Shown here: positions 21,477 to 61,354 of the stretch, in pieces
Position numbering within the stretch: position 1 is the stretch's first letter
Layout of the letters: each line of letters opens with the position of its first letter
Assembly: GCA_015066365.1 (NCBI GenBank)
Contig: SVON01000003.1
Span: 61,416 to 125,415, forward strand
DNA: 64,000 nt
Source of the DNA: Oscillospiraceae bacterium
GTDB taxonomy: Bacteria; Bacillota; Clostridia; Oscillospirales; Acutalibacteraceae
Direction: 5' to 3'
Program-made: the position numbers and the translations under genes
The notes under the pieces: model-generated
The model's input: only the letters and a program-made list of their open reading frames with translations
The model's database searches: none
Told to the model about the DNA's origin: nothing

Positions 21477-23396
21477 ATGCAGAACTATACACGCAATCTG
21501 CTGGCCTTGTTGTGTGCGGTAGCGATGCTTTTCTCTCTGGTTTCCTGCGGCACGCAGGCTCAGGGTGAGGAGGGCGAAGCCCCCAACAAGGTGGAGGCTA
21601 ACAGCGTGGCGAAGATCTTGGAGCGGGACGGCTATCTGGAGGGGATCTGGTGGCCTTGGTTTACCCACGACGATCTGGGCCATGGTCTGACCGCCAACGA
21701 GACTATGGTAAAGTATGTGAGCAACGCTTGGTCTACGGTGGGCGTGGACAAGTATAGCGATAAATATCTGCTGGAGCAGATCTATAACCTGAAGGCTTTG
21801 GGCTTTAACATTATGGGTTATGAAGGCTCGATCTACGCAGAGGGCGTCATTTTTGACGAAGCCGGCGATGTGCTGGGCATTAAGGAGGATTACCTCCAGA
21901 ATGTCCGCCGTCTGCTGAACGTCTGCCGTCAGGCCGAGATGCCGGTGCTGTGGACGGTGTGCTGTCACTCCACCTCGGCGGTTTCCTATTACAATCTGGA
22001 GGTTTGGTACCGGATGACCCAGATGTATGCGGTCAAGGAGGTAGCCGACCACTATGTTGAGCGATTTGTCAAACCGTTGTGCGCGGTGCTGGCAGAATAT
22101 CCGGACGTGGTGGTGATGTGTGCCACCACCTCTGAGGTAGAGAACGAGATGAACGACCCCGATATGGGCAACTTCACCGAGCATCGGGAAACCTATGGCG
22201 TCACCAAAGAGTCGATGCTATATTTTGTCAACGCGGTGGCGGATACCCTGGCGGCAGAGCTGCCGAACGTGGATCGCACCCTCTGCGGTAGCACCGACAA
22301 TATGACCATGTACTCCGAGACCAACCTGACCTTTATCGGTCACCAAGAGTATAATGCCAACGCTTCTGCCGACGACATTTCTAAATTCCGTTCTCCGTTG
22401 CCGATGTTGGCCACCGAGTTCGGCTTGGGCGACGGCAAATATCCCACCGAGGACGAGCTGGTCGATGCCCAGCTTACCTTCCGGAATAATTTCAAGAGCA
22501 AGGGCTGGAGCGGATGGTTTATGTGGTGCTGGTCCAATCAGTCCGGCGGTAGTTCTTATGACCTGATTGCCAAAAACGGTGGGATTACCGATTTCCGCAA
22601 GGTGGCCTATGAGATCCACGATTATATTGAGGAATACCGGGCGGAGTATCGGGGCGAGACCCTTTCGGTCAACACCCCCACTATGTTCTTTCACTCCGGC
22701 GACGGCCTGGTAGAGTGGATAAAGCCTACCCAGTCTCACACCTATAAGCTGGAGCGATCGCTGAACGGCGGCGCTTGGACCACCATCGCCACCACCGGCG
22801 CTACGGTGGATTCTGTGGGCCGTAAATACACCTATCAGGACACCACCCTGCCCACCAACGGCAAGGTGCAGTACCGGGTGATTGTTACCTCCGGCGGCAA
22901 GACCGTCACCTCCCTCTCCAACGTGGTGGACGTTCTGCCTCCTGCCCAGAACCTGGCGCAGAATGGCGGCTTTGAGGATGGACTGACCGGCTGGACCAAG
23001 TTTGGTAGTGACGGCACCTACCGGGCTACCAACGCCACCGCCCACACCGGCTCTTACAGTTTGGAGCTGGATTATGGCAGCGGCGAGTGGCAGGGGATGT
23101 ATCAGCCCGCCCTTCAGGTGAAGCCGAACACCAACTACACCCTGACGTATTACTACAAACACGCCGGCGACGATACCGCCAACAACTGCTATTGCTTTGT
23201 ACGCGGCGGGGATGGCACCATTAATGCGGCGGAGATCGTTGGCCAGGCCTATATGAACGGCGGCAACACCACCGAATGGAAGAAGGAGACCATTTCCTTC
23301 CGCACCGGTGACAGCGATAAGCTGTGCATCGACTTCCGTGTGGTAGCCGGCACGCACACCTATATCGACGACGTTATGTTGGTCGAATTGCTGTAA
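21477..23396 (+). CDS. secreted lipoprotein glycoside hydrolase, clan GH-A-like (beta/alpha)8 (GH5-like, family unresolved), plus Fn3/Ig-like and C-terminal CBM4/9-like domains
   Basis: Lipobox LVSCG. IYNLKALGFNIMGYEGS, VENEMND (candidate acid/base) and LATEFGLGDG (candidate nucleophile). C-terminus NGGFEDGLTGW...KPNTNYTLTYYYK. Paralogs at 47129 and 55013. Confidence 0.7.
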   Translation: MQNYTRNLLALLCAVAMLFSLVSCGTQAQGEEGEAPNKVEANSVAKILERDGYLEGIWWPWFTHDDLGHGLTANETMVKYVSNAWSTVGVDKYSDKYLLEQIYNLKALGFNIMGYEGSIYAEGVIFDEAGDVLGIKEDYLQNVRRLLNVCRQAEMPVLWTVCCHSTSAVSYYNLEVWYRMTQMYAVKEVADHYVERFVKPLCAVLAEYPDVVVMCATTSEVENEMNDPDMGNFTEHRETYGVTKESMLYFVNAVADTLAAELPNVDRTLCGSTDNMTMYSETNLTFIGHQEYNANASADDISKFRSPLPMLATEFGLGDGKYPTEDELVDAQLTFRNNFKSKGWSGWFMWCWSNQSGGSSYDLIAKNGGITDFRKVAYEIHDYIEEYRAEYRGETLSVNTPTMFFHSGDGLVEWIKPTQSHTYKLERSLNGGAWTTIATTGATVDSVGRKYTYQDTTLPTNGKVQYRVIVTSGGKTVTSLSNVVDVLPPAQNLAQNGGFEDGLTGWTKFGSDGTYRATNATAHTGSYSLELDYGSGEWQGMYQPALQVKPNTNYTLTYYYKHAGDDTANNCYCFVRGGDGTINAAEIVGQAYMNGGNTTEWKKETISFRTGDSDKLCIDFRVVAGTHTYIDDVMLVELL

Positions 23397-23402
23397 GGAG
23401 GG

Positions 23403-25997
23403 ATGGCTGTGAAACTGAAACAAATACTTTCTTTTGCGCTGTCCCTTTCTTTGCTGATCGGTCTGCTGTTGGTGGTGCCGATCATCCGAGTCGCCGCCGC
23501 GGACAATCTGGCGGCTAACGGCGACCTGGAGATGGGTAACACCAACGGCTGGGAGGTTGCCAACGCGTCGGTGGACAGCAGTGTGAAATACGCCGGCAAC
23601 TATTCCTTGAAGCTGACCGCTATCTCTGCGTACAGCGGCGCGGCCTATAAGATCGTGCCGGTGGGCAAGGGCGCTACCGTCACCGTGTCCTTCTATTATC
23701 GGTACGCCTCTGATCCCGGCAGCAAGACCTATCACGTGTATACCTATATGGGCTCAAACGCCAACGCAGGACCTTACAACAACGCGGATAAAACGTTTAG
23801 CGCTCCCAGCGGGTGCGAGTCTATCTCCACGTGGAAACAGATCTCCTACACCTTCAACAGCGGCGACTACGCCAATATTTATCTGAAGTTCTGCCCCGGC
23901 GGCAGCGGCGGTACCGCTTGCTACATCGATAATCTGGTGGTCACCTCCACCGGCGGTACGACGGAGAAGGTAGACCCTTATCTCACCTCCTTTGGCACCA
24001 AGTACAACCGCCCCGCATCCGCCAGCTATAACCTGATCAAAAACGGTGGCTTTGAGTCCACCTCCGACGCTCCGTGGAACACCGCCTCTTTCTTAAAGGG
24101 GAATCTGTCGGTGATTACCGATCTAGGTGCCTACGCAGGCGAAAAAAGCCTGTATTTTGACGCGGGCGACACCGCCACCTCCGCCTGGCACACCTTCCCG
24201 GTGGCGGTGGAGAAATACACCCAATACACCTTCTCGGCGTGGGTGAAAGCGCCCCGCTTGAGCGCTACCAACCGGGCCACCGCCACCTTTGGCGTGGCCA
24301 ATGCGGAGACCGGCAACTTCCTCGTCTATGAGCCGTATAACGGCAACGGTTATGGCGCAGCATCGATTTCCACTCCGGAAATGCAGTTGATGGCACCCTC
24401 TCCGGATGGGGCGTGGCACCTGCGGTCGGTGACCTTCTATTCCGGCACCGCCTCTCAGGTCAACGTGGCGATCTCCGGCAGCCAGAGTCAGCTGTATTTG
24501 GACGATATCGCTCTGTATAAGAGCGCCTACGGCGTGGAGTACATCAGCGAACGGCGGACCGGCACCATCACCGCCCAGAACAATACTGGCAATAAATACT
24601 GTGCGGATGCGGATTCTCTGATTCCCGCCCCCCAGATGACCGGTAAAGCGGCGCAGCAGCATTGGTCGGACAATCCGGCGTGGCGCAACGGCTTTATGTC
24701 CTTTACGGACACCGGCGACAGCCACGGCACGGCGCTGAAATACACCGCCTCGGCCAGGCCGCTGAAGCTGGCTTACATCGACTGGATCGACGTGCAGCCG
24801 AATACCTCCTACACCCTAACGATGGACGTAAAGCGGGTGCGTGCCGGCGATGGGCGCATAGCGCTGCTGGATGATCAGATTCTGAATCCGGCTGAGTTCT
24901 ATACGGTGCCTTTCTCTGCGACGGATACCGCCTGGAAGACCTATTCCATCACCTTTAACACCGGGGTGTATTCCCGCATTGGTTTTGCCATTGTGGATGG
25001 CGGCGGTACGGTATATCTTGATAAAACCCGCCTGTTTAAGACCTCTCAAGCCGTTGCTACCGAGCCGGAGGATAGCGAAATGCCGGTGCTCAAGCCCACC
25101 GGTGGCAAGACCAGCGTAATGGAGATGGGGGATACCGCCCCCACCGACGTCATCCGAAACGGCGGATTTGAGCAGGGCTCCCTGACGGATTATATCGGGT
25201 ATCAGTCCACGGTGATTTCCGCTGCGGCGGCGCATACCGGCGCCTATGGTGCCCATCTGAAGGGGGATGGCTCTTGGGGCGCTATGCTGGAGCAGGTCAA
25301 CATCCCGGTGAAGGACGGTAAGGTCTACACCTTCACGTATTGGTACAAAGCCAATTCCAGCGGTGCGAATATCACGCTCAAGGGCAATACCACCAACACC
25401 CAGTACGCCTATGCTTGGGTGAACAACGGAGAGTGGACCAAGGTGACGGCCACCTTTGCGGTAGAGGGGGACACCGCTCTATGGCTTAACGCTTGCGGTG
25501 GCGGAGACGGCAAAAAAGAGGACGTGTATCTGGATGAACTTTCTCTTGTGGAGCGGGATTCCGGGTCCACCCTGGGTATCGCTTTTATGATGGAACTGGA
25601 CGCTTTGGGCGTGATGCGCAATGAGCGATTGGAAACGGTCCTCTCCAACGCGACGGTGGATGCCTATGGCAACGGAGAGGCGTACCGTCTGGTGCAGATG
25701 GGTGCGGTGATGACCAATAAGGCCTCGGTGGGCACCGATCCTGCGTTGTTCAAACGGGATAACCTGGACGCCGAGAGCCGTATAGTGGACATACCGGCGG
25801 TGTATCTGAACAGCGTTTCCGAAGCCAACGTTACTTTTGCGGTGCGTGTGATCAACGTACCCCGCCGTTCGGCCAACGTGGTGGTCTATGCTCGTCCTTA
25901 CTACGTGTTTGCAAAGGATGGGGAAGAGATCGTGGTGTACGGCGACATTTACAGTCGCAGCTATAACAATTCCGGCGAGGATATTTTGCTGGATTAA
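23403..25997 (+). CDS. secreted multi-CBM (CBM4/9-like jelly-roll array) protein with no recognisable catalytic domain
   Basis: Signal peptide. At least four modules of the form NG(D/G)(L/F)E..(G/S)...W...(K/Q)PNT.YT(F/L). The start could instead be GTG 23409, which has better spacing from AAGGAGG. Paralog at 48757. Confidence 0.7.
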   Translation: MAVKLKQILSFALSLSLLIGLLLVVPIIRVAAADNLAANGDLEMGNTNGWEVANASVDSSVKYAGNYSLKLTAISAYSGAAYKIVPVGKGATVTVSFYYRYASDPGSKTYHVYTYMGSNANAGPYNNADKTFSAPSGCESISTWKQISYTFNSGDYANIYLKFCPGGSGGTACYIDNLVVTSTGGTTEKVDPYLTSFGTKYNRPASASYNLIKNGGFESTSDAPWNTASFLKGNLSVITDLGAYAGEKSLYFDAGDTATSAWHTFPVAVEKYTQYTFSAWVKAPRLSATNRATATFGVANAETGNFLVYEPYNGNGYGAASISTPEMQLMAPSPDGAWHLRSVTFYSGTASQVNVAISGSQSQLYLDDIALYKSAYGVEYISERRTGTITAQNNTGNKYCADADSLIPAPQMTGKAAQQHWSDNPAWRNGFMSFTDTGDSHGTALKYTASARPLKLAYIDWIDVQPNTSYTLTMDVKRVRAGDGRIALLDDQILNPAEFYTVPFSATDTAWKTYSITFNTGVYSRIGFAIVDGGGTVYLDKTRLFKTSQAVATEPEDSEMPVLKPTGGKTSVMEMGDTAPTDVIRNGGFEQGSLTDYIGYQSTVISAAAAHTGAYGAHLKGDGSWGAMLEQVNIPVKDGKVYTFTYWYKANSSGANITLKGNTTNTQYAYAWVNNGEWTKVTATFAVEGDTALWLNACGGGDGKKEDVYLDELSLVERDSGSTLGIAFMMELDALGVMRNERLETVLSNATVDAYGNGEAYRLVQMGAVMTNKASVGTDPALFKRDNLDAESRIVDIPAVYLNSVSEANVTFAVRVINVPRRSANVVVYARPYYVFAKDGEEIVVYGDIYSRSYNNSGEDILLD

Positions 25998-26006: not shown

Positions 26007-26036
26007 AAAAGGATGTCGGTTAACCGGCATCCTTTT
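26007..26036 (+). terminator. rho-independent terminator
   Basis: aaaaggatgtcgg / ccggcatcctttt. Confidence 0.75.
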
Positions 26037-26130
26037 TGCTTATTTTGGCTCGTTGACACGGCGCGGACACCGTGGTATAATGAGGGGCGTAGCGGCGTGA
26101 TGCCGTAATTTCCGCAAGAGAGGCTAGATT

Positions 26131-27537
26131 ATGAAACGATGGCTTAGTATCCTGCTGGCTGTGCTGATGTTGGTGGCGATGACCGCCTGCGGCGACAGCG
26201 GCAAAGAAAAAAACGAAACCAAAAGACCTTCGATGGATCCGGCGGATTACGTGGCGCCGGAGCCGTTGGTGTACACCGAGCTGCCCAAGAACCTTAAGGC
26301 GGAACAGGTGGGCTCCTTCTCCGGTGAGGCCAAAGCCACCAACGGAGGTCTGTATTACAAAGAGGGGGACAAATACGGCATTATGACCCTCAACGGCCTG
26401 GTGGATTCCGGCCCGATTTACACGGTTTGTCAGCCCAATAAGCAGTATTTTATGGTGGCAAAGACGGTGGGCGATACCACCAAGGTGACCACCGCCAACG
26501 TGGTGGGTCTGGTGGATGCCCTGGGTCGGGAGATCATCCCGATGAAATACGCCTCCATTGAGCTGATCGGTGAGCGTTTTGCCCGTGTGGCGGAGCTGAC
26601 CGGTACCACCGATAAGGAAGAGGAAAAACTCACCAAATTTGCCGATCAGAAGGGAAATACCGTGCTGTGCACCGGTAATTGGTACCTCTATGACCTAAAG
26701 ACCGGTCAGCCGGTACCCGGCGCCACCGGCACCAAGCCGTATATCAGCTTTGACTGCGGCGGCTACGTCAAATACGTGACCGACGCCAAAAAATCGGTGG
26801 TGGCCACCCCGGACGGCAAAGCCCTGCCGGAAGAACCCATTCACCTGAAAAACGGCTATTACGCCATCAAGTCCACCCATACGGTGTACAGCAGCGAGGG
26901 CGTGAAGCTGTTCTCCTACGACCCCAAGGTGTATACACCGGTAGAAAGTGAGAGCATCGAGGGCTTTATTCTGGCTGAAAAGCAGGAGAAGGGCAACAAG
27001 ACCTACGTCCTGCTCAACGAAAAGGGTGAGGTTGCCTCAGCGGTGTTTGATCACAAACCGGAGCAACACGGTACGCTGTTCCACGTGGGCAAGGCACTGG
27101 TAAAGCTGGACGGCACTCCGGTGGTAAAGGCCGGTTGCAACAGCGTGTATTGGGAGCCCGTTTACGGTCAGAGCTGGGCGGTCAGCGACGGCAAGACCAC
27201 CAAAGTGGTGGATGCCACCGGTCGGGTGGTGTTTGAGAATAAGACCACCGGCTCTAAGGTGGATACCAAGCTGATGCTGTGCTATAAGAGTGGCAGCGAG
27301 AAGCGGTATTACTATTCTTCTAAAGACAAGGGCTTTACCGTCGGCGGTGCCGGTCTGGCCCCCTTCCTGGTCAAAAAGGCCAACGGCACCACCAGCTACG
27401 ACGTGGTGAACGTGCTCAATGGCGAGGTGATTTTGACTGGTTATACCGACTATACCGTGTCGGATGCCGGCGATACGTTAGTGTATGTATATGCAAAAAA
27501 GCCGGATGGCAACACCGACGTTTTCGTAGTGCGATAA
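26131..27537 (+). CDS. lipoprotein, probable WG-repeat (KWG-like beta-repeat) protein
   Basis: Lipobox MTACG. Repeated (K)YG(I/L)..(L)NG/(D)..G(R/K)E(I)IP.KY-type segments. Confidence 0.6.
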   Translation: MKRWLSILLAVLMLVAMTACGDSGKEKNETKRPSMDPADYVAPEPLVYTELPKNLKAEQVGSFSGEAKATNGGLYYKEGDKYGIMTLNGLVDSGPIYTVCQPNKQYFMVAKTVGDTTKVTTANVVGLVDALGREIIPMKYASIELIGERFARVAELTGTTDKEEEKLTKFADQKGNTVLCTGNWYLYDLKTGQPVPGATGTKPYISFDCGGYVKYVTDAKKSVVATPDGKALPEEPIHLKNGYYAIKSTHTVYSSEGVKLFSYDPKVYTPVESESIEGFILAEKQEKGNKTYVLLNEKGEVASAVFDHKPEQHGTLFHVGKALVKLDGTPVVKAGCNSVYWEPVYGQSWAVSDGKTTKVVDATGRVVFENKTTGSKVDTKLMLCYKSGSEKRYYYSSKDKGFTVGGAGLAPFLVKKANGTTSYDVVNVLNGEVILTGYTDYTVSDAGDTLVYVYAKKPDGNTDVFVVR

Positions 27538-28612: not shown

Positions 28613-29308
28613 TTAGCGAACCAGTCCCTCGCGGTAGAGGTGGGCGTCGCCGGAATGCTGGACGATCTGGGGGATCACCATGCCGTCGCCGTGGTGATAG
28701 AAGAGGATTTCGGTCACGCCGGTGTGGCATATATTGAACCGGGGGTAGAATACATTGTAGGGAATGTCCATCACACTGCTGAGGAAGGCCAGACCAAAGC
28801 CGTAGTGGGCGAACAGAGCCACCCGGGCCGGGTTATCCCCGATGATGTGATAACAGCCGTTTTCCCGGTCGTGGCGATAGCCCAACTCTTCCAGAAACGT
28901 GTCCACGGCGGCGTCCACCCGGTTGACCCCCCGGGCAAAGTTGGTGTCGGCAAAATAGGGGTGGGTGTACCACGCTCGGCCCAGCTTTTTCACTTCCGGG
29001 TCGTTGAGCTTGCGCACCATCTCCGGCACTTCCAGAATCCACTGGAGGTTGCCGCCTTGATCCTTGGCGCTGAAATCGTCAAAAGCGTGTGCTTCGTGAG
29101 CCCAGTCGCAGAGAATGGGCTCTTTCCCCAGCAGGTCGCAGGTGGGTTGGGCGGTTTGAATGGCCCGGGTGGAGGTGGAGGAATACACCTTGTTTAGCCC
29201 CAAATTCAGAAACCGTTTGGACAAGGCCTTGGCCTGCTCGTGTCCCAGAGGGGTCAGGCTGTCGGGGTCGTAGATGGGCTGACCGTGACGGATGAAATAC
29301 AGACGCAT
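28613..29308 (-). CDS. histidine phosphatase (phosphoglycerate-mutase-like) family protein
   Basis: RHG motif at the N-terminus (MRLYFIRHGQP), then LTPLGHEQA and a downstream H (FAHYG). Paralog at 46062..46790. Confidence 0.8.
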   Translation of the reverse strand: MRLYFIRHGQPIYDPDSLTPLGHEQAKALSKRFLNLGLNKVYSSTSTRAIQTAQPTCDLLGKEPILCDWAHEAHAFDDFSAKDQGGNLQWILEVPEMVRKLNDPEVKKLGRAWYTHPYFADTNFARGVNRVDAAVDTFLEELGYRHDRENGCYHIIGDNPARVALFAHYGFGLAFLSSVMDIPYNVFYPRFNICHTGVTEILFYHHGDGMVIPQIVQHSGDAHLYREGLVR

Positions 29309-32571: not shown

Positions 32572-32659
32572 TGCCAGTTCCGTAATCTCTATTTTATTTA
32601 TTTCTTTATTATAAGACTTAATCGCAAGCAAAATTTTCAAGGAAAGTGAGTTGTAGACC

Positions 32660-51076: not shown

Positions 51077-51141
51077 TAAAGACCGCCTGGATGGCTGTGC
51101 TCATCTGTGGCATACAGAAACTTCAAAATGAGGAGAGCACA

Positions 51142-51927
51142 ATGGAAGCTTTTAATCATTGGTTGAATCAAATACAGCATAACGGCCAGGGTGTTGAACT
51201 GTACAATCTGGTGGGCACCCTTTGTTTTGTCGTGCTGGTTATTAGCGGTATTTGGTATGTTTGGCGGCAAAAACTGAGTTTTTTTAAGGCGATGCCCATT
51301 GTGGTGATGGCCTGTGTGTTTTTGATTTACGCTCAGCATCTGATGACCTGGTATCGCCGAGATTTTGCGCTGGAGAGTTACATGGGCACCGCTAACGTTG
51401 GCTATGCTTTTACGCTGTTGCCGCTGTTTTGTTGGCTGTGTGCAAAGGCCTTTTCCGTTTCCACCGCTACGGTGGGGGAACTGGTGGCGGTCACCACCCT
51501 CTCTTGGCACGTAATCGGCCGCTCCGGTTGCACCTTTTCCGGTTGTTGCCGTGGTGTTGACTGCCCGTGGGGCGTCTATTCCGTCTATGCCGGCGGAAAC
51601 ACGTTTCCGGTCTGCTGGCTGGAGAGTTTGATCGCTCTGGGCGTATTGGTGTTTCTGCTGGTGCGTCTGTTCCGCCGGGAGCGCGGTGTGCCGGATGATG
51701 GGCGCGCCTTACCGTACGCTCTGCTGCTGTACGGTAGTGGCCGCTTTTTCTCCGAGTTTTTGCGGCACCACCCTCAGGAGGATATCCTCTTTGGCTTTTT
51801 GCCGGAGTTCTCGGTTCACGCCCTGCTGATGGCGATGGTGGGCGGTATTCTGCTGTACAGCGTTATACGGGGACACCGGCCTGCTGTTTCGTCTGCAACG
51901 GCGGATACGGCGGTTTCACAAGAATAA
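51142..51927 (+). CDS. Lgt (prolipoprotein diacylglyceryl transferase) family membrane protein, Cys-rich variant motif
   Basis: Aligns by eye to the C-terminal two thirds of Lgt. GRSGCTFSGCCRG corresponds to the GR.GNF.N.E..G signature, FPVCWLESL to P.QLYE, and YGSGRFFSEFLR to YG.FRF..EF.R. Confidence 0.6.
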   Translation: MEAFNHWLNQIQHNGQGVELYNLVGTLCFVVLVISGIWYVWRQKLSFFKAMPIVVMACVFLIYAQHLMTWYRRDFALESYMGTANVGYAFTLLPLFCWLCAKAFSVSTATVGELVAVTTLSWHVIGRSGCTFSGCCRGVDCPWGVYSVYAGGNTFPVCWLESLIALGVLVFLLVRLFRRERGVPDDGRALPYALLLYGSGRFFSEFLRHHPQEDILFGFLPEFSVHALLMAMVGGILLYSVIRGHRPAVSSATADTAVSQE

Positions 51928-51988: not shown

Positions 51989-52843
51989 ATGGAACAATTC
52001 AACAACTGGCTTAATGAAATTCAGCACAATGGAAGAGGCATCGAGCTGTACAATCTGACCGGTACCGTCTGTATAGCGCTGTTGGCGGTTTCGATACTGC
52101 TATACGTTTGGCGGCAGAGGCTGAATCCGTTTAAGGCGATTCCCATCGGGATAATCGTGTACTATTTTCTCGGCTATGCCCAGCATATCATGACCTGGTA
52201 CCGACGCGATTTTGCGTTCGGCGAGGGGTATTATGGCACCGCCAACATCGGGTATGCGTTCGTCCTGCTGCCGCTTCTCTGCTGGCTGTGCGACGTCACC
52301 TTTAACCTGCCCAAGCACACCTCCGGCGAGCTGGCGGCGATCACCACGCTGGGATGGCACTTTGTGGGTCGCTCCGGCTGCACCTTTACCGGCTGTTGCC
52401 ACGGCATTCCCAGCAGTTGGGGTATCTACACCCACAAAATTGACAGCCTTGCCTTCCCGGTCTGTTGGCTGGAGAGCCTGCTTACTCTGGGCATCCTGAT
52501 CTTCCTGCTGGTGCGGCTGTTCCGCCGTGGTCTTATGCCGGAAGGGAAACAGAGCCGCTTCCGTCTGGTGAACTGGTATTACCGCAAGCGCCGTATGCTG
52601 GATAACGGTCGGGCGCTTCCCTATATGTTGCTGTTTTACGGCACCGGCCGTTTCTTCACCGAGTTTTTGCGGTACCACCCCGAGGACGATATCCTCTTCG
52701 GTTTCCTGCCGGAGTTCTCCATTCACGCCCTGCTGATGGCAGTGGTGGGCGGTTATCTTTTGTACCGCCTGATTAAAAAAGAGAAGGCTGCGGCTGTACC
52801 GGAAGAGGAAGCGCTTCCTACCCTCAAGGGTCAGCGGCACTAA
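51989..52843 (+). CDS. second Lgt-family membrane protein (tandem paralog)
   Basis: MEQFNNWLNEIQHNG..., GRSGCTFTGCCHG, FPVCWLESL and YGTGRFFTEFLR. Colinear with the upstream gene. Confidence 0.6.
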   Translation: MEQFNNWLNEIQHNGRGIELYNLTGTVCIALLAVSILLYVWRQRLNPFKAIPIGIIVYYFLGYAQHIMTWYRRDFAFGEGYYGTANIGYAFVLLPLLCWLCDVTFNLPKHTSGELAAITTLGWHFVGRSGCTFTGCCHGIPSSWGIYTHKIDSLAFPVCWLESLLTLGILIFLLVRLFRRGLMPEGKQSRFRLVNWYYRKRRMLDNGRALPYMLLFYGTGRFFTEFLRYHPEDDILFGFLPEFSIHALLMAVVGGYLLYRLIKKEKAAAVPEEEALPTLKGQRH

Positions 52844-53333: not shown

Positions 53334-54896
53334 ATGAAAACAGCAAAGTTCAGCCGTATTCTCAGCCTGTTGGCTCTGGTGCTGGTTGCCACGATGCTGC
53401 TGACCCTGGTCAGCTGTGGCAGCACCACCCCGGTTGGGGATATCCCCGCTGCAGAAGAGGACGTTTCTAGCGATCCCTCTGACGGCAATGGCGACGTTGC
53501 GGATCCCTCTGTGACCGATCCCAGCGACACCGACCCCACTTCTTCTGACCCTACTGCCAGTGACCCCACTAGCAGCACTCCCACCAGCAGTGGCACCGGT
53601 GGTATTCCGATCATCACCAAGCCCAACCCCAGCGGCAGTGGCACCACCCAGACCACCACTTCTCTGACCAACCCCACGGTGGATCCTGGCAAGGATGTTC
53701 TGAAGGCTGTTCCGAAGGAGCTGAAGGGCACCAGCATCAAGATGCTGATCTGGTGGACCGCCGGTAAGGACGATAAGGCCGAGGCCGCTAAATTCGAGAA
53801 GGCCACCGGCATCAAGGTTTCTTATGAAACCGCCGCTCTGACCAAGTATCAGACCAACCTGTCCGCTAAGGTTATGGCTAAGAACGCTCCCGCTCTGGCC
53901 GCCATCATCAACGAGTGGTATCCCCAGCCCATCACCCGTGGTCTGATGCAGCCCCTGACCAACGTAAAGGGTTGGAACTACAAGGATAGCAAGCTGTACT
54001 CTCTGTCTCTGATGGATCAGTTCGGCTACAAGGGCAAGCACTACGGCGTGGCTCTGAAGGGCTCCAACATGACCACCTTCGAGGTGATGTTCTTCAACAA
54101 GAACATCCTGAAGAAGCAGGGCGTCAAGCAGGATCCCTATCAGCTGTGGAAAGCCGGTAAGTGGAACTGGGATACTTGCTTGGATATCGCCAAGAAGTGC
54201 ACCGATTCCAAGCGCAAGCTGTTTGGTATGTCCAACGTTGGTCAGTATTTCTGGATGCTGTCCGCCGGTGAGGACTTTGTTAAGTCCACCAAGGCCGGTC
54301 TGAAGAACAACATCGGCTCCGCCGGCGTTCTGAACGCCTGGAACCACAACTGGAACCTGACCTACACCCACAAGGTTATCGATACCTCTTACACCGGCCA
54401 GACTCCCTTCTTCCAGGGCAAGGCCGCTATGCTGGGCGCCGGTTCCTACATGATGCAGGCCGATGCCAGCCACTCCAACTACGTTCCTCAGAACATGAAG
54501 GACGAGTGGGGTGTCGTTCCCTTCCCGTCTCCCAAGGGCAAGTCTGTTGCCGCTTGCGAGGGTACCGTTTGGGGCTTCCCCACCAGCGTCTCCGGCAACA
54601 AGCTGCAGGCCGCTGCCTGGTACCTGCGTTACTTCCTGGATGACTACAACTATTCCGCCCGTGACTTCTATCCCAAGTCTGAGTGCTGGGAGGTCATGAA
54701 GTGGATGTGGGATCAGACCATCCAGTCCTACAACTCCGTCGGTGTTCTGACCTACGGCGGTGAGTACAACGCTTACTCCATCCAGTATTCTCTGGTTGAC
54801 GAGGCTGACACCACCGGTAAGCTGAAGGCTAACCTGGAGTCCTGGATCGGCGTTCTGGATGCCAACATCAAGAAGATCGAGAACGAGTTGGCTTGA
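53334..54896 (+). CDS. extracellular solute-binding lipoprotein (carbohydrate ABC, family 1) with Ser/Thr/Pro/Asp-rich tether
   Basis: Lipobox LVSCG, linker DPSDTDPTSSDPTASDPTSSTPTSS, then an SBP-like body (IKMLIWW.., KAAMLGAGSYM). RBS TAGGAGG. Confidence 0.8.
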   Translation: MKTAKFSRILSLLALVLVATMLLTLVSCGSTTPVGDIPAAEEDVSSDPSDGNGDVADPSVTDPSDTDPTSSDPTASDPTSSTPTSSGTGGIPIITKPNPSGSGTTQTTTSLTNPTVDPGKDVLKAVPKELKGTSIKMLIWWTAGKDDKAEAAKFEKATGIKVSYETAALTKYQTNLSAKVMAKNAPALAAIINEWYPQPITRGLMQPLTNVKGWNYKDSKLYSLSLMDQFGYKGKHYGVALKGSNMTTFEVMFFNKNILKKQGVKQDPYQLWKAGKWNWDTCLDIAKKCTDSKRKLFGMSNVGQYFWMLSAGEDFVKSTKAGLKNNIGSAGVLNAWNHNWNLTYTHKVIDTSYTGQTPFFQGKAAMLGAGSYMMQADASHSNYVPQNMKDEWGVVPFPSPKGKSVAACEGTVWGFPTSVSGNKLQAAAWYLRYFLDDYNYSARDFYPKSECWEVMKWMWDQTIQSYNSVGVLTYGGEYNAYSIQYSLVDEADTTGKLKANLESWIGVLDANIKKIENELA

Positions 54897-55012: not shown

Positions 55013-57058
55013 ATGAGTAGAGCCAAAACAAAGGCAATACTGCCCATTCTGTGCTCAATCGCCTTGTTGTTCTGTGCCTTTGGTGCGACCTACGCCTCCG
55101 GTAAAAACCCGGAGGAGCGCAGCACCGCCACCGGCATTGATATGATCTTGGAGCGCGACGGCTATATCGAGGGTATTTGGTACCCCTGGTTCCAGCATAC
55201 CTGGCTGGGTCACTGCTTGACCGGCAACGATATGATGGCCGATGTGCTCAACAGCGATAACCCCTTGAAGGTTGGTCTCGACCAGTATGGTGAGATCAAC
55301 ATTTATCGTGAGATCTACAACCTGAAGGCTTTGGGTTTCAACCTCCTCGGTTACGAAGGTTCTCCCTTCGGCGAGGGTGTTATTTATGATCAGAACGGCG
55401 ACGTGCTGGGCATCAAAGAAGAGTACCTGAACAATGTCCGCCGTTTCCTGGACATCTGTCGAGAGGTCGGTATGCCGGTTCTGTGGACCGTTTGCTTCCA
55501 CACCACCGCCGCCAACGATCTGTACGACGATGGTCGTCTGATTTGGGACCGTGTGTCTCAGGCTTATGCCAACCCCGAGGTGGCCGATCACTACGCCGAG
55601 CGTTTTGTGAAGCCCCTGTGTAAGGTGTTGGGCGAGTATCCCGAGACCGTTGTGATGGTCTCTGCCGGCGTTGAGCTGGAGAATGAGATCAACGATAGCG
55701 AGATCGGTAACTACTTCGATCAGCGTTACAACTACGGTGTTACCCAGGAGGCGATGCTGTACTTCATCAATGCGGTGAACTCTATGGTGAAGAAGCAGCT
55801 GCCCAACGTGGACACCACCATCGCTTCCACCTCCAAGGATATGTCCATCTACGAGGGGATCGATTTCGATTACATCGGTAAGAACCACTACACCATCAGC
55901 GCTCACGCTCCCGACATTGCCGAGATGCGTGGCACCACCCCCATGCTGGTCACCGAGTTCGGTCTGGGTGACGGCGTCGTGGTGGAGGATGAGGTTTGGA
56001 CCATTAAGCAGATTCAGTTCCGTGACAACTTTGTCAACGCCGGCTATAAGGGCTGGATGTACTGGTGCTGGTCCAACCAGGGCTACGGCGGTCCCTACGA
56101 CCTGCTGGTGGCCGGTGGTAAGTCCACCACCGAGTTCCGCGCCGGTGCTTTTACCATTAAGTACAACGCGGATTATATGAAGGCGATGCACAAGGGCGAA
56201 GAGATTGTTCTGGATGCGCCGGTCCTGTTCTGTAACAAGGGCTCCGGCACCGTGGAGTGGATCTCTTCCCGCCAGGCTACCAAGCTGTCCCTGCTCCGTT
56301 CTCTGGACGGTGGTAAGAGCTGGAAGACCCTGCTGAAGAAGGTGGATCCCACCGAGTACGAGGCAGACTTCAAGGGCACTTACGTGGACGAGGTTGTGGC
56401 CAATATGCAGCCGGATGGCACCAAGGTGATGTATAAGATGGTCGCTTATGACGACGACGGCAACGTGCGTGAGTCTGAGCCCTCCAACAACGCCACCGTG
56501 GTTGGCCCTCCCGTGAACATTCTGGCCAACTACAACTGCAGCTTCGAGGACGGCCTGGATGGCTGGCAGGAGTTTGGTACCAATGGTGAGACCGGTAACT
56601 ATACCGCCACCATCGTGGATCTTGGCAAGGACGCTCCCGACGGCAAAAAGGTTCTGGAGTTCAAGCAGAACACCGGTAAGGGCGAGTGGTCCGGTATCCA
56701 CATGGATGGTATCGACGTTAAGCCCAACACCCAGTATAAGATCATCTTGAAGTACAAGATCGCTCCCGAGGCCGAGTTTGGGTACGACGTATCCGACGAG
56801 GTCAACAAGATGTCCGGTTACTTCTTTATCCGCGGCATCGGCGCCGATGGCACCGGTACCGGTAAGGGCGACATCTACGATGAGTCTATCGCCTGTATGT
56901 ATATGCTGCGCGGTAGCAAACTGGAGTGGAAGGACGACAGCATCAGCTTTAAGACCAACGAGAGTGGCAAGCTGGGTCTGGACCTGCGTTGCGTCCACTA
57001 TCTGGGCGTCCCGGTCCACTATTACATCGACAGCATTGAGTTGTACGAAGTTCTGTAA
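55013..57058 (+). CDS. secreted clan GH-A-like glycoside hydrolase paralog plus Fn3/Ig-like and C-terminal CBM4/9-like domains
   Basis: ILERDGYIEGIWYPWF, IYNLKALGFNLLGYEGS, ELENEIND and LVTEFGLGDG. An alternative ATG at 55004 is possible. Confidence 0.7.
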   Translation: MSRAKTKAILPILCSIALLFCAFGATYASGKNPEERSTATGIDMILERDGYIEGIWYPWFQHTWLGHCLTGNDMMADVLNSDNPLKVGLDQYGEINIYREIYNLKALGFNLLGYEGSPFGEGVIYDQNGDVLGIKEEYLNNVRRFLDICREVGMPVLWTVCFHTTAANDLYDDGRLIWDRVSQAYANPEVADHYAERFVKPLCKVLGEYPETVVMVSAGVELENEINDSEIGNYFDQRYNYGVTQEAMLYFINAVNSMVKKQLPNVDTTIASTSKDMSIYEGIDFDYIGKNHYTISAHAPDIAEMRGTTPMLVTEFGLGDGVVVEDEVWTIKQIQFRDNFVNAGYKGWMYWCWSNQGYGGPYDLLVAGGKSTTEFRAGAFTIKYNADYMKAMHKGEEIVLDAPVLFCNKGSGTVEWISSRQATKLSLLRSLDGGKSWKTLLKKVDPTEYEADFKGTYVDEVVANMQPDGTKVMYKMVAYDDDGNVRESEPSNNATVVGPPVNILANYNCSFEDGLDGWQEFGTNGETGNYTATIVDLGKDAPDGKKVLEFKQNTGKGEWSGIHMDGIDVKPNTQYKIILKYKIAPEAEFGYDVSDEVNKMSGYFFIRGIGADGTGTGKGDIYDESIACMYMLRGSKLEWKDDSISFKTNESGKLGLDLRCVHYLGVPVHYYIDSIELYEVL

Positions 57059-57073
57059 GGAGGTGGAGAGAAT

Positions 57074-60000
57074 ATGTTGAATATGAAAAAAGCATTGGCT
57101 CTCCTGGCCTCCTTGCTGCTGTTGTGCAGCTTGGTTCCTGTGGGTGCTCTGTTGGCCGCCAATGCGGACGACAACAACATCGTGGTCAACGGTGATTTTG
57201 AAAACGGCAGCAACGGCTGGAATATGAGCAGCTATGCTACCATTGTGGATACTGCTCACGCCGGCAACGGCGCTCTGAAGCTGGAGAATCCCTCCGCTTG
57301 GGGCGAGGCCGCCACTCAGATTGTGAACGTTGATTCCAACACTGAGTACACCGTGATCTGGTATTCCAAACGCGTGTCCGGCACCGGCGCTTTCGATCTG
57401 TTCATTATGAACAACAACGGCTACGCCAATCTGGACCGCGAGGGTCCCAACTGGATGAACGAGACCTCCGGCAACTGGGTTAAGAATCAGTGCGTGGTGA
57501 AGACCGGCACCGCTACCCAGGTGATGCTGAAGTTCTCCTGCGAAGTGCCCAATGCCGGCGTCATCCTGGTGGATGACCTGACTATGGTCAAGAAGGGTGG
57601 CAGCACCCCCGAGCCCGATCTGCCGGGTTCTGATACGGTCCTGTCTCTGGACTTCAACGACGGTTCCGTCAACGGCTTCTCCGGTGGCGCCTCTGTCGTT
57701 GCCGACGGTCCCGACGGTAGCAACTGCCTGAAGTGGACTGCTGCCGGCAACTGGGGCTGTACCGAAAAGGCTGGCGTGATCGTTAAGCCTAACACCGATT
57801 ATACCGCTACCTTTATGGTGAAGGCCAGCGTGGCCGGCTCCATGGGTATCACCATCCAGAATGGTGACTGGGGCGCTTGGCTGAACTGCCCCGCCTTTGC
57901 GGTTACCACCGAGTGGAAGAAGGTTGTCTATACCTTTAACACCGCTACTTATCCCAACGCCAGCGGCGCCATCCTGTTCAAGTTCCAGGATGTGGGTCAG
58001 GCGATGGATCTGTACATTGACGACCTGGTTATCGTTGAGGGCACCGGCACCCCCGATGAGCCCGATAATCCCCCCGAGGTGACCGTCGCCAACGGCGATT
58101 TTGAGACTGGTGATGAGACCGGTTGGCAGATTCACCAGTCTACCGCGATTGAGGCTGGCGCTGCCCACGACGGTTCGTATGGTGCCCATCTGAAGGGCGT
58201 CGGCGGCTGGGGCGGTATGCTGAATCAGGCTATCACCGTCACTGCCGGCAGCTCCTATGAGCTGACCTTCTGGATCAAGGTGAATGCCAACGGCGTGAAT
58301 ATGCAGCTCAAGGACGGCGGCGAGACCGGTTCTAACCTGGTCGGCGACTGGTTCGACGTCAGTGGTGCCGGTGACTGGACTGAGAAGAAGTACATTGTTA
58401 CCCCCACCACCGAGGTGCTGTTCATTAACTTCTGCGGCGCCGGTAACGGCACCGCCGAGGACGCTTACGTGGATAGCTTTACCATCACCGAGCTGAAAGA
58501 GGCTTCTTTTGACGGCTATATCACCAATGGTGATTTCGAGACCGGCAAGATCGACGGCTGGGAGAACCTGTGGGGTTCCTGCAGCGTGGAGATCGTGGGT
58601 GGCCGTAACGGCGGCTCCGCTCTGAAGCTTTCCTGCAACCAGTGGCAGCTCTTCCGTCAGATCGTTGAAGTAGAGCCCAACACCGATTACGTGGTGCACG
58701 CTTACTCCAAGGATGCGGCCAATATGGCTCTGATCGCCAAGACCTGTCCTGCCGACCAGAACATACCCGGTGCCAACGTATCCTTTGCCTCCGGTTCCGG
58801 CTGGTCTAAGACCACTATGGAGTTCAACTCCGGCAATACCAACCAGATTTATCTGGCTCTGATGGGTGCCGATAATGGTGCTACCGGTATCTTTGATGAC
58901 TTTGCTATGTACAAGAAGGGTGACGAGCCCGGCGGCGACGACCCCGATCAGCCTATCGATCCTGCCTATCCCACCGAGTTGGTTAACGGCGACTTCGAGA
59001 AGGGTGAAGAGGGCTGGACCCTGGCCGCTTCCGCCAGCATTGTGAGCGACAACACCCATAAGGGTACCGGCGCTCTGAAGATCGAGAATCCCTCTTTATG
59101 GAGTGAGGCTGTTGTGCAGGCCGTGTCCGTGCAGAAGGACACCAACTACGTGATCACCTGGTACTCCAAGCGCGTGAGCGGTGCAGGCTCCTTCAACCTG
59201 ATCCTGATGAACGATGCCGACCACAACTATTCCGTGGTAAGCGGTCAGAACTGGATGAACGAGACCTCCGGCGACTGGGTGAAGAACGAGGTTATTATCA
59301 ACACCGGTTCTCAGAATGTGATCAAGTTTAAGTTCACCTCTGAGGTCAACGACGCCGGTGTCATCCTGATCGACGACGTTCAGATGATCATTGAGGGCTC
59401 TGAGCCGGTGGATCCCACCGCCAGCCTGATCAAGAACGGCTCCTTTGAGGACGGTAAGGACGATTGGTCTTGGGGCGGCGAGTCTGCCGTAGCCGACGAT
59501 CCTTACGAGGGTTCTCACTCTGCGAAGTTGGTCAACAACTCTGCTTGGGGTGTAGGTATCGAGCAGGTCGTTAAGGTGGAGAAGAACACCGACTACGTGC
59601 TGCGTTTCTACACCAAGCGTGTCACCGGCGCTGGTGTCTGGGTTCTGTCTCTGATGGACAACGACACCGTCAACGTGACCAACGTCAACATCGAGGCTAC
59701 CTCCGGTCAAAAGTGGTTTAGCCACACCACCACCAACAAGTGGGAGGAGCACATCATCGAGTTCAACTCCGGTGAGGTGACCAAGGTTCTGGTGAAATTC
59801 GGCCCCGAGGCCGACAATGCCGGTTCCTTCCTGGTGGACTATATCGGTATGTGGACCAAGGGCAACGAGCCCTCTCCCGACAACCCCGATAACCCCGACA
59901 ATCCTGTGGTGCCTCCCAAGGCCCAGATGTTTATGACCTCGTTCGGCGTGTTGAACAACCGTCCCATCAGCAACGAGGACAACCTGCTGACCAACGCCAG

Positions 60001-61354
60001 CTTTGAGAAGTCCGGCGGTCAGTGGAAAGAGGGCTTCACCGGCGAGACCGTCTCTGTGGTGAAGGATTCTACCACTCTGTTTGGCAGCAAGAGCCTGTAC
60101 TTCAATACCGCCGGTATCAAAGAGGAGACCAAGATGATCTTCTGGCTCGACCTGGCTCCTGAGACCGACTATGTATTCTCCACCTGGCTGAAGGGTGCCT
60201 TCCTGGCCGACGATAACAGCGGTCTGGCCACCATCGGTATCGTGGATGAAAACGGTCGTTTCCTAGCCCAGTACGTTGAGAGCGACATCAAGCGCTTCCT
60301 CAATGGTAAGCGTCAGATCGTCCCCACCGCCTGGGATAACGAGTGGCACATTCGCGGTATTGAGTTCAACACCGGCGAGTGCACTAAGGTGGGTATCGCT
60401 TTGGCCGGTACCAACTCTCAGATGTGGATCGACGATATGGCTCTGTTTGAGGTCGGCCAGGGCAAGAAGTATATGTCTGCCAATGCGGCCGGTAACGTCT
60501 CTCTGAGCTACGATATCGACTCCAACGCCATCGCCTGTAAGGATAAGGACAGCCTGATTCCCGATCCTACCTTTAGCAAGGGTACCAACGATTTCTGGAA
60601 ATCCAGCTATGGTTGGAAGAATGGCTTCCTGAGCGTTGTCGGCAACAAGTACGAGTACGGCAAGTCTCTGAAGTACACCTACTCCAAGGATACGGCGCCT
60701 CTGTCGGTCATCAAGACCATTGAGGTTGAGCCCAACACCGATTACACCTTTGTTGTGGATCTGAAGATTCTGGAGGATGGTTGGGGCAAGCTGATGCTGT
60801 GCGACGGTAAGAAGCGTGAGCCCGTCTCCTTCCTGGAGGTCAGCTTCGACTCTTACGATTACGACCCCGAGGCCAGCTACTATGGTTGGTATACCACCGT
60901 CTGCAAGTTCAATACCGACGTATACGACAAGATCTCTCTGGTCATCCTCAACGATGGTGGTCAGGCGTTGTTGGATAATATGCGTCTGTTCAAGAGCGAG
61001 AAGGGCATCAAGAACACCGATGCGTTTACGCCTCCTCCCGAGGAGCCTACGCCCGATGTTCCGCCCTCTGACAACAACTGGTGGACCGACTATCCTGTGA
61101 TCGATGATCCCGTGATCGATGATCCCGTGATCGACGATCCCCTGCAGGGTGGTACCGACGATCCCTACGTGGAGGATGAGCCCATCGAGGCGCCCAGCAA
61201 GCCCATCAAGCTGGTTCCCACCGTGGCCAAGACGGACAACAGTGCTTGGCTGTGGGTCGGCATTGGCGGCGGCATCCTGCTGTTGGCCGGTGCCAGCGCG
61301 TTCCTGTTCTTCTTCCTGAAGAAGAAAAAGAGCACTCCTCCTGCTGCGGAATAA
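57074..61354 (+). CDS. 1426-aa cell-surface multi-CBM array protein with a C-terminal TM anchor
   Basis: Signal peptide. At least eight NG(D/S)FE..(G)W...PNT(D/E)Y modules. PVIDD repeated three times. Terminal hydrophobic segment plus KKKKS tail, with no LPXTG motif. Confidence 0.75.
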   Translation: MLNMKKALALLASLLLLCSLVPVGALLAANADDNNIVVNGDFENGSNGWNMSSYATIVDTAHAGNGALKLENPSAWGEAATQIVNVDSNTEYTVIWYSKRVSGTGAFDLFIMNNNGYANLDREGPNWMNETSGNWVKNQCVVKTGTATQVMLKFSCEVPNAGVILVDDLTMVKKGGSTPEPDLPGSDTVLSLDFNDGSVNGFSGGASVVADGPDGSNCLKWTAAGNWGCTEKAGVIVKPNTDYTATFMVKASVAGSMGITIQNGDWGAWLNCPAFAVTTEWKKVVYTFNTATYPNASGAILFKFQDVGQAMDLYIDDLVIVEGTGTPDEPDNPPEVTVANGDFETGDETGWQIHQSTAIEAGAAHDGSYGAHLKGVGGWGGMLNQAITVTAGSSYELTFWIKVNANGVNMQLKDGGETGSNLVGDWFDVSGAGDWTEKKYIVTPTTEVLFINFCGAGNGTAEDAYVDSFTITELKEASFDGYITNGDFETGKIDGWENLWGSCSVEIVGGRNGGSALKLSCNQWQLFRQIVEVEPNTDYVVHAYSKDAANMALIAKTCPADQNIPGANVSFASGSGWSKTTMEFNSGNTNQIYLALMGADNGATGIFDDFAMYKKGDEPGGDDPDQPIDPAYPTELVNGDFEKGEEGWTLAASASIVSDNTHKGTGALKIENPSLWSEAVVQAVSVQKDTNYVITWYSKRVSGAGSFNLILMNDADHNYSVVSGQNWMNETSGDWVKNEVIINTGSQNVIKFKFTSEVNDAGVILIDDVQMIIEGSEPVDPTASLIKNGSFEDGKDDWSWGGESAVADDPYEGSHSAKLVNNSAWGVGIEQVVKVEKNTDYVLRFYTKRVTGAGVWVLSLMDNDTVNVTNVNIEATSGQKWFSHTTTNKWEEHIIEFNSGEVTKVLVKFGPEADNAGSFLVDYIGMWTKGNEPSPDNPDNPDNPVVPPKAQMFMTSFGVLNNRPISNEDNLLTNASFEKSGGQWKEGFTGETVSVVKDSTTLFGSKSLYFNTAGIKEETKMIFWLDLAPETDYVFSTWLKGAFLADDNSGLATIGIVDENGRFLAQYVESDIKRFLNGKRQIVPTAWDNEWHIRGIEFNTGECTKVGIALAGTNSQMWIDDMALFEVGQGKKYMSANAAGNVSLSYDIDSNAIACKDKDSLIPDPTFSKGTNDFWKSSYGWKNGFLSVVGNKYEYGKSLKYTYSKDTAPLSVIKTIEVEPNTDYTFVVDLKILEDGWGKLMLCDGKKREPVSFLEVSFDSYDYDPEASYYGWYTTVCKFNTDVYDKISLVILNDGGQALLDNMRLFKSEKGIKNTDAFTPPPEEPTPDVPPSDNNWWTDYPVIDDPVIDDPVIDDPLQGGTDDPYVEDEPIEAPSKPIKLVPTVAKTDNSAWLWVGIGGGILLLAGASAFLFFFLKKKKSTPPAAE
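61094..61138 (+). repeat. in-frame 15-bp tandem repeat, 3 copies (PVIDD)
   Basis: cctgtgatcgatgat / cccgtgatcgatgat / cccgtgatcgacgat. Confidence 0.9.

Follow-up and report, generated by a model that had tools for sequence, protein, structure and literature searches.

The window analysed here, a 64,000-nucleotide stretch of Oscillospiraceae bacterium DNA (family Acutalibacteraceae; contig SVON01000003.1, positions 61,416 to 125,415), carries three paralogous two-gene cassettes on its forward (+) strand. Each encodes an enzyme (E1 to E3) followed by a partner protein (P1 to P3) built from carbohydrate-binding modules (CBMs). In cassette 1, the 641-aa E1 (21477-23396; open reading frame (ORF) from 21471/21477) begins with a signal peptide whose LVSC lipobox was read from the sequence, continues through a catalytic domain resembling glycoside hydrolase (GH) family 5 (21588-22670) and an Fn3-like linker domain, and ends in a CBM_4_9 module (22950-23321). 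Its 864-aa partner P1 (23403-25997) comprises a signal peptide, a CBM, a two-module core (23958-25082), a CBM_4_9 module and a C-terminal domain of ~150 aa (25548-25994). Cassette 2 encodes E2 (47129-48736; ORF from 46997/47129), in which a signal peptide precedes a GH5-like catalytic domain (47297-48406) and an Fn3-like domain and no CBM is present, and the 748-aa P2 (48757-51003), with a signal peptide, a CBM_4_9 module, the core (49354-50481) and the C-terminal domain (50521-50958). In cassette 3, the signal peptide of E3 (55013-57058; ORF from 55004/55013) is followed by a GH5-like catalytic domain (55118-56218) and then by an Fn3-like domain, with a CBM-like module at the C-terminus. The 1426-aa P3 (57074-61354) has a signal peptide, about six CBM_4_9 modules and the core (59906-61018), and beyond a Pro/Asp-rich linker it ends in a transmembrane anchor (61244-61324). 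Enzyme and partner genes are separated by 6, 20 and 15 nt in cassettes 1, 2 and 3, respectively. A first-pass annotation of the sequence had described three such cassettes, and its ORFs, coordinates, gaps of 6-20 nt and partner sizes of 748-1426 aa were all confirmed, as was the presence in the translations of every enzyme motif it quoted.

At the sequence level, the relatedness of the cassettes is well past chance expectation. E1 and E3 share 42% identity across 680 aa (E 2e-174) and 50% in the catalytic domain alone, in agreement with the earlier estimate by eye that about half of their aligned positions are identical, and E1 and E2 share 34% (E 7e-83). Among the partners, P1 and P2 are 34% identical over 613 aa (E 1e-98), with a further 41% over the C-terminal 150 aa, and P1 and P3 are 29% identical over 547 aa (E 5e-63). 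Across cassettes, the enzymes are thus 34-50% and the partners 29-34% identical. A tblastn search of the window recovered the three catalytic domains, the three partner cores and two C-terminal domains, and no further copies. The three enzyme-partner gaps contain no terminator hairpin, and one such hairpin follows every partner gene: a 13-bp stem followed by a T run closes cassette 1 (26007-26036, + strand), a 16-bp palindromic hairpin with T runs on either strand lies after P2 (51042-51076), and a 13-bp hairpin of unassigned strand separates P3 from a convergent regulator gene (61445-61473). Given this distribution of hairpins, each cassette looks bicistronic. In addition, a signal peptide of its own is predicted on each partner, indicating that enzyme and partner are genuinely separate genes. 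We rejected a frameshift or assembly artefact as the origin of the split, both for this reason and because orthologous split pairs occur in independent metagenome-assembled genomes (MAGs).

The ~360-aa N-terminal domain of the enzymes goes undetected by standard annotation. Searches of Pfam, NCBIfam and Protein Data Bank (PDB) sequences with single enzymes returned CBM matches only. The catalytic domains of E1 to E3 have no Pfam match even at E<=10, and so none to PF00150 (Cellulase), no NCBIfam match and no direct match in a single-sequence search of PDB sequences. An AlphaFold (AF2) model of the catalytic domain, built from 15 homologues, is a (β/α)8 barrel with strands alternating with helices (predicted local distance difference test score, pLDDT, 81; predicted template modelling score 0.86). 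When this model was compared with the PDB using Foldseek, the top seven matches were all GH5_10 mannanases (2c0h, 4oou/4ooz, 3vup and 5y6t; E 2e-12 to 5e-11, template modelling (TM) score 0.54-0.61), and the best 50 of the 854 matches at E<=1e-3 all belonged to clan GH-A (GH5 and GH1). The model and its neighbours therefore bear out the clan GH-A fold suggested by the first-pass annotation, which had asked for this structural check, and they support placing the enzymes among clan GH-A-type (β/α)8 glycosidases outside standard domain libraries.

Profile searches place the enzymes further, which the first-pass annotation had been unable to do. A family profile built from 33 sequences matched Mytilus Man5A (2c0h) among PDB sequences at E 2.4e-18 and 5y6t, 3vup and 4oou at 6e-8 to 2e-7. 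All other catalytic-domain matches down to E ~0.07 were GH5 enzymes; the non-GH5 matches in the same range were Fn3/Ig-type domains aligned to the linker region of the profile only. The first non-GH5 glycoside hydrolases to appear were two GH35-type β-galactosidases at E 0.3-0.5. A HMMER search of 1.84 billion representative proteins gave 219 matches, 88 of them below 1e-30, and the weakest were ordinary PF00150 (GH5) proteins. Consistently, hhalign aligned the enzyme family to eight PF00150-positive GH5 proteins with a probability of 100% (E 5e-57). The family is therefore distantly related to GH5, with the GH5_10 β-mannanases as its nearest relatives: its sequence similarity to GH5 is significant, but it stays below the Pfam gathering threshold. 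Identity to the GH5_10 structures is 11-16%, which, on this nearest-neighbour evidence, makes a sister lineage of GH5_10 more likely than membership. With identity this low and no PF00150 match, we did not arrive at a confident assignment to a characterised GH5 or GH26 subfamily, the outcome that the first-pass annotation had named as contradicting its view of the enzymes.

The alignments also identify the predicted catalytic residues. In E1, the predicted acid/base is Glu222 (codon 22134-22136, + strand), at the end of strand β4, directly after the strand modelled at 175-182 in domain numbering. The predicted nucleophile is Glu316 of the TEFG motif (22416-22418, + strand), on β7, inside the strand modelled at 273-279. 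By alignment, the corresponding + strand codons are 47888-47890 (E298, acid/base) and 48176-48178 (nucleophile) in E2, and 55673-55675 (E224, acid/base) and 55955-55957 (nucleophile) in E3. E222 aligns with the Glu of the catalytic NEPE in 2c0h (MeMan5A) and of the NE in Pfam-positive GH5 proteins, and E316 aligns with IGEFN of 2c0h. Counted along the alignment, the two residues line up with residues 163 and 294 of the 2c0h chain, which we take to be the published E177 and E308 (Larsson et al. 2006), given a 14-residue offset. In both alignments, to 2c0h and to the PF00150-positive set, the family motif x-E-p-E-n-x-i-N-D, which in E1 reads tS-E-vENE (S-E-V-E-N-E), falls on N-E-P-E of GH5. Among 87 family members, E222 is kept in 81, E316 in 83, Y294 in 85 and H166 in 77. 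The nucleophile is thus the Glu of (T/G)E(F/Y)G that had been proposed from the sequence, but the acid/base is not the Glu of NE(M/I)ND. That pair corresponds to N225 and E226, which lie in the turn after the strand; of the 87 members, only 32 and 35, respectively, keep them, and two close homologues have Gln at this position; the alignment puts the acid/base four residues upstream, at E222.

GH5 enzymes are marked by eight hallmark residues: an Arg on β2, a His on β3, the Asn-Glu pair on β4, a His and a Tyr on β6, a Glu on β7 and a Trp on β8. Five of the eight are kept here (H166, E222, Y294, E316 and W352), short of the full set. The β2 Arg is replaced by G, A and G in E1, E2 and E3, respectively, and retained in 16 of the 87 members. 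The Asn preceding the acid/base is S, D and V in the three enzymes and varies through the family, and the β6 His is Q, N and N, with N or D in 70 of the 87. The PF00150-positive comparison proteins retain all three residues. As read from sequence, the residues kept and lost point to an active retaining enzyme whose −1 subsite has been remodelled.

The partner proteins are pure arrays of β-sandwich CBMs without a catalytic fold, as the first-pass annotation had described them. A Pfam scan of the partners matched CBM-type models only, with no catalytic domain, and CBM_4_9 scores of 120.7 bits in P1 (three stretches), 38.2 bits in P2 (one stretch) and 171.9 bits in P3 (six stretches). Signal peptide and CBM-like modules, together with a terminal anchor or C-terminal domain, cover each partner from end to end and leave no space for a catalytic domain. 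Common to all three is the core of ~370 aa, with the invariant motifs NRP, WHLR, C..(D/S)L and W.NG, which AlphaFold (AF2) models as two β-sandwiches (pLDDT 82). Among known structures, its fold resembles that of the Xyn10C tandem CBM22-1/CBM22-2, of CBM-like domains in Cry1 protoxins and in Vip3, of accessory modules from GH101 enzymes, and of SGBP-B, a surface glycan-binding protein (SGBP) from Bacteroides. Scored alone against CBM_4_9, the core reaches 43.9 bits in P1 and 22.1 bits in P2, below the cut-off, and has no match in P3. Pfam found neither dockerin (Dockerin_1) nor cohesin domains in the six cassette proteins. In P1 and P2, the C-terminal ~150 aa form a domain (...YARPYY.F...VYGD...) that was found nowhere but at the C-terminal end of partner or fused proteins, at the place where P3 has its transmembrane anchor. 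It has no relative in Pfam or among PDB sequences, and a word-indexed homology search returned 17 homologous fragments. Our guess is that it may be a new cell-surface anchoring module.

The relationship between enzyme and core extends well beyond the window. A scan of GTDB species representatives recovered 44 loci in 14 MAGs (Acutalibacteraceae, Clostridia, "uncultured Ruminococcus"), with 2-11 family copies per assembly. In 43 of the 44 loci the core comes after the catalytic domain on the same strand, and the exception (L043) ends at a contig edge. Of 69 enzyme-core pairs in these related loci, 44 lie in one ORF, which runs from the catalytic domain through Fn3 and core to further modules; in the remaining 25 the pair is divided between two ORFs, the second beginning 1-20 nt past the stop codon. 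Fused forms are also found among database representatives (P0025-29, P0032, P0040 and P0045). Distant members with 25% catalytic identity (L045 and L046, in the Ruminococcaceae MAGs UBA1734 and UBA5891) retain the linkage. Genome scanning with P0048, a single distant member, turned up no loci, and a subgroup alignment then recovered four. Core homologues were seen only alongside the enzyme, in the loci and in database representatives alike. The two-gene form is thus the minority, split version of what is usually a single modular enzyme, and enzyme and partner are one evolutionary unit; the pairing had been called a conserved unit from the window, and the fused proteins bear this out directly. 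In a rough neighbour-joining tree the split forms are scattered across several clades, indicating that fission or fusion happened more than once.

The family is restricted to uncultured Acutalibacteraceae and Ruminococcaceae gut MAGs. Most of these come from ruminant hindguts, and their samples include goat cecum and sheep rectum as well as samples labelled TS/YK. At least one more distant member occurs in the uncultured Ruminococcaceae MAG UMGS974, which we believe to be from the human gut. Orthologues of the window enzymes in other species are 81-85% (E1), 76-86% (E2) and 65-81% (E3) identical. Given that the paralogues within the window share 34-50%, the duplications are older than those speciations. 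Paralogues within a genome are only 40-57% identical, and the partner cores diverge faster than the enzymes. At 50% identity the family forms ~100 clusters among the 1.84 billion representative proteins, none of which is named in any source. In addition, a word-indexed homology search gave 24 metagenomic matches for the enzyme and 13 for the partner core, all unnamed, a cluster look-up with 10 diverse members returned no names, and literature searches found no description of the enzyme family.

The genes next to the cassettes include regulators, a transport protein and a phosphorylase. Both AraC-family genes that had been noted alongside cassettes 1 and 3 were found: one, with Pfam HTH_18 and AraC_binding domains, is divergent from cassette 1 (20475-21335, − strand) and has orthologues by cassettes in 7 related loci, and the other, also identified by Pfam, is convergent with cassette 3 (61489-62406, − strand) and kept in 7 related loci. 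A lipoprotein solute-binding protein (SBP) with a SBP_bac_8 domain and an LVSC lipobox lies directly upstream of cassette 3 (53334-54896, + strand). SBPs are the commonest cassette neighbour in related loci (11 loci; a 14-member cluster in the neighbour census), and the PDB relatives of this one, Lmo0181 and Lin1841, do not point to a ligand. Upstream of cassette 2 is a GH130_2-type β-1,4-mannoside phosphorylase (44918-45904, + strand; Pfam E 4e-83), whose PDB matches are TM1225 (9e-157), the β-1,4-mannooligosaccharide phosphorylase RaMP2 (1.5e-128) and UhgbMP (6e-122). It belongs to a conserved block consisting of a DUF5696 protein, two permeases, GH130 and a histidine phosphatase. The synteny of GH130 with cassette 2 is retained in three related loci (L026, L032 and L042), where the DUF5696-permease-permease-GH130 order recurs. 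Regulator, SBP/ABC (ATP-binding cassette) transporter and glycanase thus occur together, the combination that defines a Gram-positive polysaccharide utilisation locus, and their synteny is conserved. Across the 44 related loci, the neighbour census comprises SBPs, AraC, Lgt, histidine phosphatase, ABC exporter, RecG, and a glycyl-radical enzyme with its activase.

These observations suggest that the cassettes are probably bicistronic operons encoding the two halves of a modular, cell-surface retaining endo-β-glycanase system, from a divergent GH5-related lineage near the GH5_10 endo-β-1,4-mannanases. The product of the first gene would be exported, E1 as a lipoprotein, and its (β/α)8 domain, with the Fn3-like spacer behind it, would catalyse cleavage through a retaining mechanism, with Glu222 as acid/base and Glu316 as nucleophile. 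The product of the second gene would be exported on its own and held at the surface, P3 by its C-terminal transmembrane helix and P1 and P2 by their uncharacterised C-terminal domain. There it would display an array of CBM4/9/22-like β-sandwiches that includes the family-specific tandem core. This core would be the ancillary binding region of the enzyme itself, being covalently joined after the Fn3 domain in most homologues. A polysaccharide caught by the partner would then be cut internally by the enzyme. Import of the products would rely on the lipoprotein SBP and ABC permeases encoded nearby, and their breakdown would follow in the cytoplasm. If the substrate is a β-1,4-mannoside, the adjacent GH130_2 phosphorylase could perform this cytoplasmic step. 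Expression of the cassettes would probably be under the control of the AraC regulators. Since the phosphorylase adjoins cassette 2, a β-mannan-type substrate is possible, an assignment that we make tentatively.

Several points weigh against this proposal. Of the eight canonical active-site residues of GH5, three have been exchanged (the β2 Arg, the Asn before the acid/base and the β6 His); the −1 subsite is therefore unlike that of known mannanases, and the substrate may not be mannan. Resemblance to the GH5_10 structures is limited to 11-16% identity and TM ~0.6, and the anchoring of P1 and P2 through a C-terminal domain without relatives of known function is a guess. The GH130 gene lies near cassette 2 only, the epimerase, α-galactosidase and esterases typical of mannan loci are not in the window, and no extra carbohydrate-active enzymes (CAZymes) recur in the 44 related loci, so that genomic context leaves the substrate unsettled. 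The substrate is the weak point of the proposal as a consequence of the altered active site, the single GH130 neighbour and the lack of recurrent CAZymes.

One alternative keeps the same architecture and mechanism and replaces β-mannan with another β-glycan. Candidates are hemicelluloses other than mannan, sugars modified at C2, exopolysaccharides of microbes or fungi, and structures derived from host N-glycans, the last together with a GH2 β-galactosidase and a Man-GlcNAc-type GH130. We regard this as rather unlikely. In its favour, the Arg, Asn and His that are lost are those that contact O2/O3 and the nucleophile in GH5; the 2-11 paralogues per genome have diverged to 40-57% identity, and their cores faster still; and some beetle GH5_10 proteins showed no activity on the substrates tried (PMC5576741). 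The GH130 protein is also near UhgbMP, which acts on N-glycan Man-GlcNAc, a LacZ-type GH2 gene lies in the window, and the SBP is closer to cycloalternan and β-1,2-glucan binders than to known mannan binders. Set against this, the nearest solved relatives of the enzymes are all endo-β-1,4-mannanases, the best GH130 matches are TM1225 and the mannooligosaccharide phosphorylase RaMP2, and the window shows no GH18/85, GH20, GH92 or sialidase that would accompany an N-glycan substrate. A bolder reading, which we consider doubtful, is that a new subfamily or family of clan GH-A begins with this catalytic domain, whose −1 subsite, without the Arg, Asn and His found almost universally in GH5, suits a β-glycan other than classical mannan, and that the core is a new CBM family needed for productive catalysis. 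The split cassettes would then be a two-component capture-and-cleave system at a Gram-positive cell surface that arose by repeated gene fission, a functional analogue of the GH and SGBP pairs of Bacteroides.

Two further explanations question the role of one protein or the other. The enzymes might be GH5-like proteins that are catalytically dead or do not hydrolyse, such as lectin-like pseudo-enzymes or strict transglycosylases; this would fit the loss of Arg, Asn and His and the failure of PF00150 to detect the domain. However, both catalytic Glu, the β6 Tyr, the β3 His and the β8 aromatic residue are kept across 87 sequences that diverge to ~20% identity, the pattern expected of an active retaining site under selection, and we judge this explanation very improbable. 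Alternatively, the partners might be general surface adhesins or scaffolds, S-layer- or cellulosome-like, with no dedicated tie to the enzyme. Partner size (748-1426 aa) and CBM number do vary widely, P3 has a transmembrane helix where P1 and P2 have a C-terminal domain, and no docking modules that would join enzyme and partner were found. Yet the core lies beside the enzyme in every related locus except the one at a contig end, is fused to it in 44 of 69 pairs, stays linked to it at 25% catalytic identity and has homologues in the context of the enzyme only, and dockerins and cohesins, which a cellulosome-like scaffold would call for, are absent from the Pfam results of the six proteins. The fusions largely refute this explanation, which we hold to be extremely unlikely.

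Comparison with known systems helps to define what is distinctive about the proposed enzyme-partner system. GH5_10 has metazoan and bacterial members, and endo-mannanase is the sole activity reported for it (PMC3526467). Its structurally characterised mannanases (Mytilus edulis Man5A, 2c0h; Cryptopygus, 4oou; Aplysia, 3vup; Eisenia, 5y6t) share with the enzymes described here the clan GH-A barrel, β4 and β7 Glu residues that align exactly, the E-P-E motif after β4, the β2-α2 segment 'EG..FD..G.V.G....L.N', the β6 Tyr and the β8 Trp. In contrast, the enzymes described here have lost the three hallmark residues, lack a PF00150 match, and are always accompanied by an Fn3-like domain and the specific tandem CBM-like core. 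Roseburia intestinalis uses a cell-attached modular mannanase, RiGH26 (CBM27-GH26-CBM23), together with an MnBP ABC transporter and GH130 phosphorylases (PMC6385246). By analogy, the system in the window, likewise from a Gram-positive gut bacterium, may combine a cell-bound extracellular endo-enzyme and polymer-recruiting CBMs with ABC import through an SBP and with a GH130_2-type phosphorylase in the cytoplasm. It differs in having a GH5-like rather than a GH26 enzyme, in placing CBMs on a separate secreted protein instead of in the enzyme polypeptide as in RiGH26, in its several tandem paralogues, and in lacking a nearby epimerase, esterases and α-galactosidase. In Bacteroides, SGBPs (SusE/F-like) are encoded beside surface GHs in polysaccharide utilisation loci (PMC7157763). 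Like the partners, they are non-catalytic multi-β-sandwich glycan binders next to a surface endo-glycanase gene, and SGBP-B (7kwb) is among the fold matches of the core. However, they are Gram-negative outer-membrane lipoproteins tied to SusC/D transport and are never found fused to an enzyme, whereas the binder described here is the C-terminal half of the modular enzyme itself, now detached. Finally, the core resembles the CBM22-1/CBM22-2 pair of Paenibacillus barcinonensis Xyn10C (4xup) and CBM4/9 modules in being a tandem of jelly-roll β-sandwiches, as reflected in the CBM_4_9 score of the P1 core. It differs from them in its own invariant motifs, and the P2 and P3 cores are recognised poorly or not at all by CBM_4_9.

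Other genes of the window touch on the cassettes to varying degrees. Tandem paralogues of Lgt, the prolipoprotein diacylglyceryl transferase (51091-51927 and 51989-52843), lie between cassette 2 and the lipoprotein SBP, and a single Lgt-like gene occupies the same position in 7 related loci (for example L011:4829-5719). A dedicated link to lipoprotein maturation is conceivable, since E1 and the SBP both carry LVSC lipoboxes. Two paralogous histidine phosphatases of branch 1 are encoded at 28613-29308 (− strand) and 46062-46790 (+ strand). The second is kept between GH130 and cassette 2 in 6-8 related loci, and this conserved position suggests that it may act on a sugar phosphate released by phosphorolysis. 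Directly after cassette 1 lies a gene for a 468-aa lipoprotein (26131-27537) that has no Pfam or NCBIfam match and has orthologues after cassette 1 in L003, L004 and L009; a perfect sigma-70 consensus promoter (26053-26081) stands between the cassette 1 hairpin and this gene. In several related MAGs, cassettes stand beside an unusually short glycyl-radical enzyme (718-737 aa, pyruvate formate-lyase-like plus Gly_radical), a radical S-adenosylmethionine activase and an AraC gene (L007:4880-7036, L001:2120-4333 and L008:4813-5592); the glycyl-radical enzyme and its activase do not occur in the window.

Elsewhere in the window, an operon at 32660-42979 encodes a 1001-aa solute-binding protein, whose SBP domain spans aa 593-902 only, two permeases, a 1013-aa membrane protein (Yip1 plus NHL repeats), and a 799-aa DUF5696 protein (Pfam E 6e-125). 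The PDB offers no sequence relative of DUF5696, and our literature search found no paper mentioning it. An 834-aa fusion protein (3317-5821), which joins a xylose-isomerase-like TIM barrel (AP_endonuc_2) to an AMP-binding adenylating enzyme, lies between LeuA-like and amidohydrolase genes and may be part of a small biosynthetic cluster. Near-full-length antisense ORFs of up to 1334 aa shadow nearly every + strand gene (for example 55055-59059, 32618-35641 and 48817-50865, all − strand). They arise because the sense codons TTA, CTA and TCA are nearly absent (0.3-0.8 per 1000 codons), and we rejected them as genes on these grounds.

The family is best described as a divergent GH5-related clan GH-A glycanase with CBMs, unusual in its depleted hallmark set, its obligatory tandem binding core and its repeated interconversion between fused and two-gene forms. 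Given that standard annotation detects only the CBMs, the whole family is probably overlooked when CAZymes are counted in these fibre-degrading communities. It offers CAZy curators and enzymologists a defined target with predicted catalytic residues, and a GH5-type active site short of three hallmark residues is of interest in its own right. In addition, the natural series of fused and split architectures provides a test bed for the contribution of ancillary binding modules. In the uncultured Acutalibacteraceae and Ruminococcaceae, this so far unnamed enzyme lineage has expanded to 2-11 copies per genome. If its substrate is unusual, the family could account for a niche of these bacteria; if it is mannan, the family would be one more mannanase lineage.

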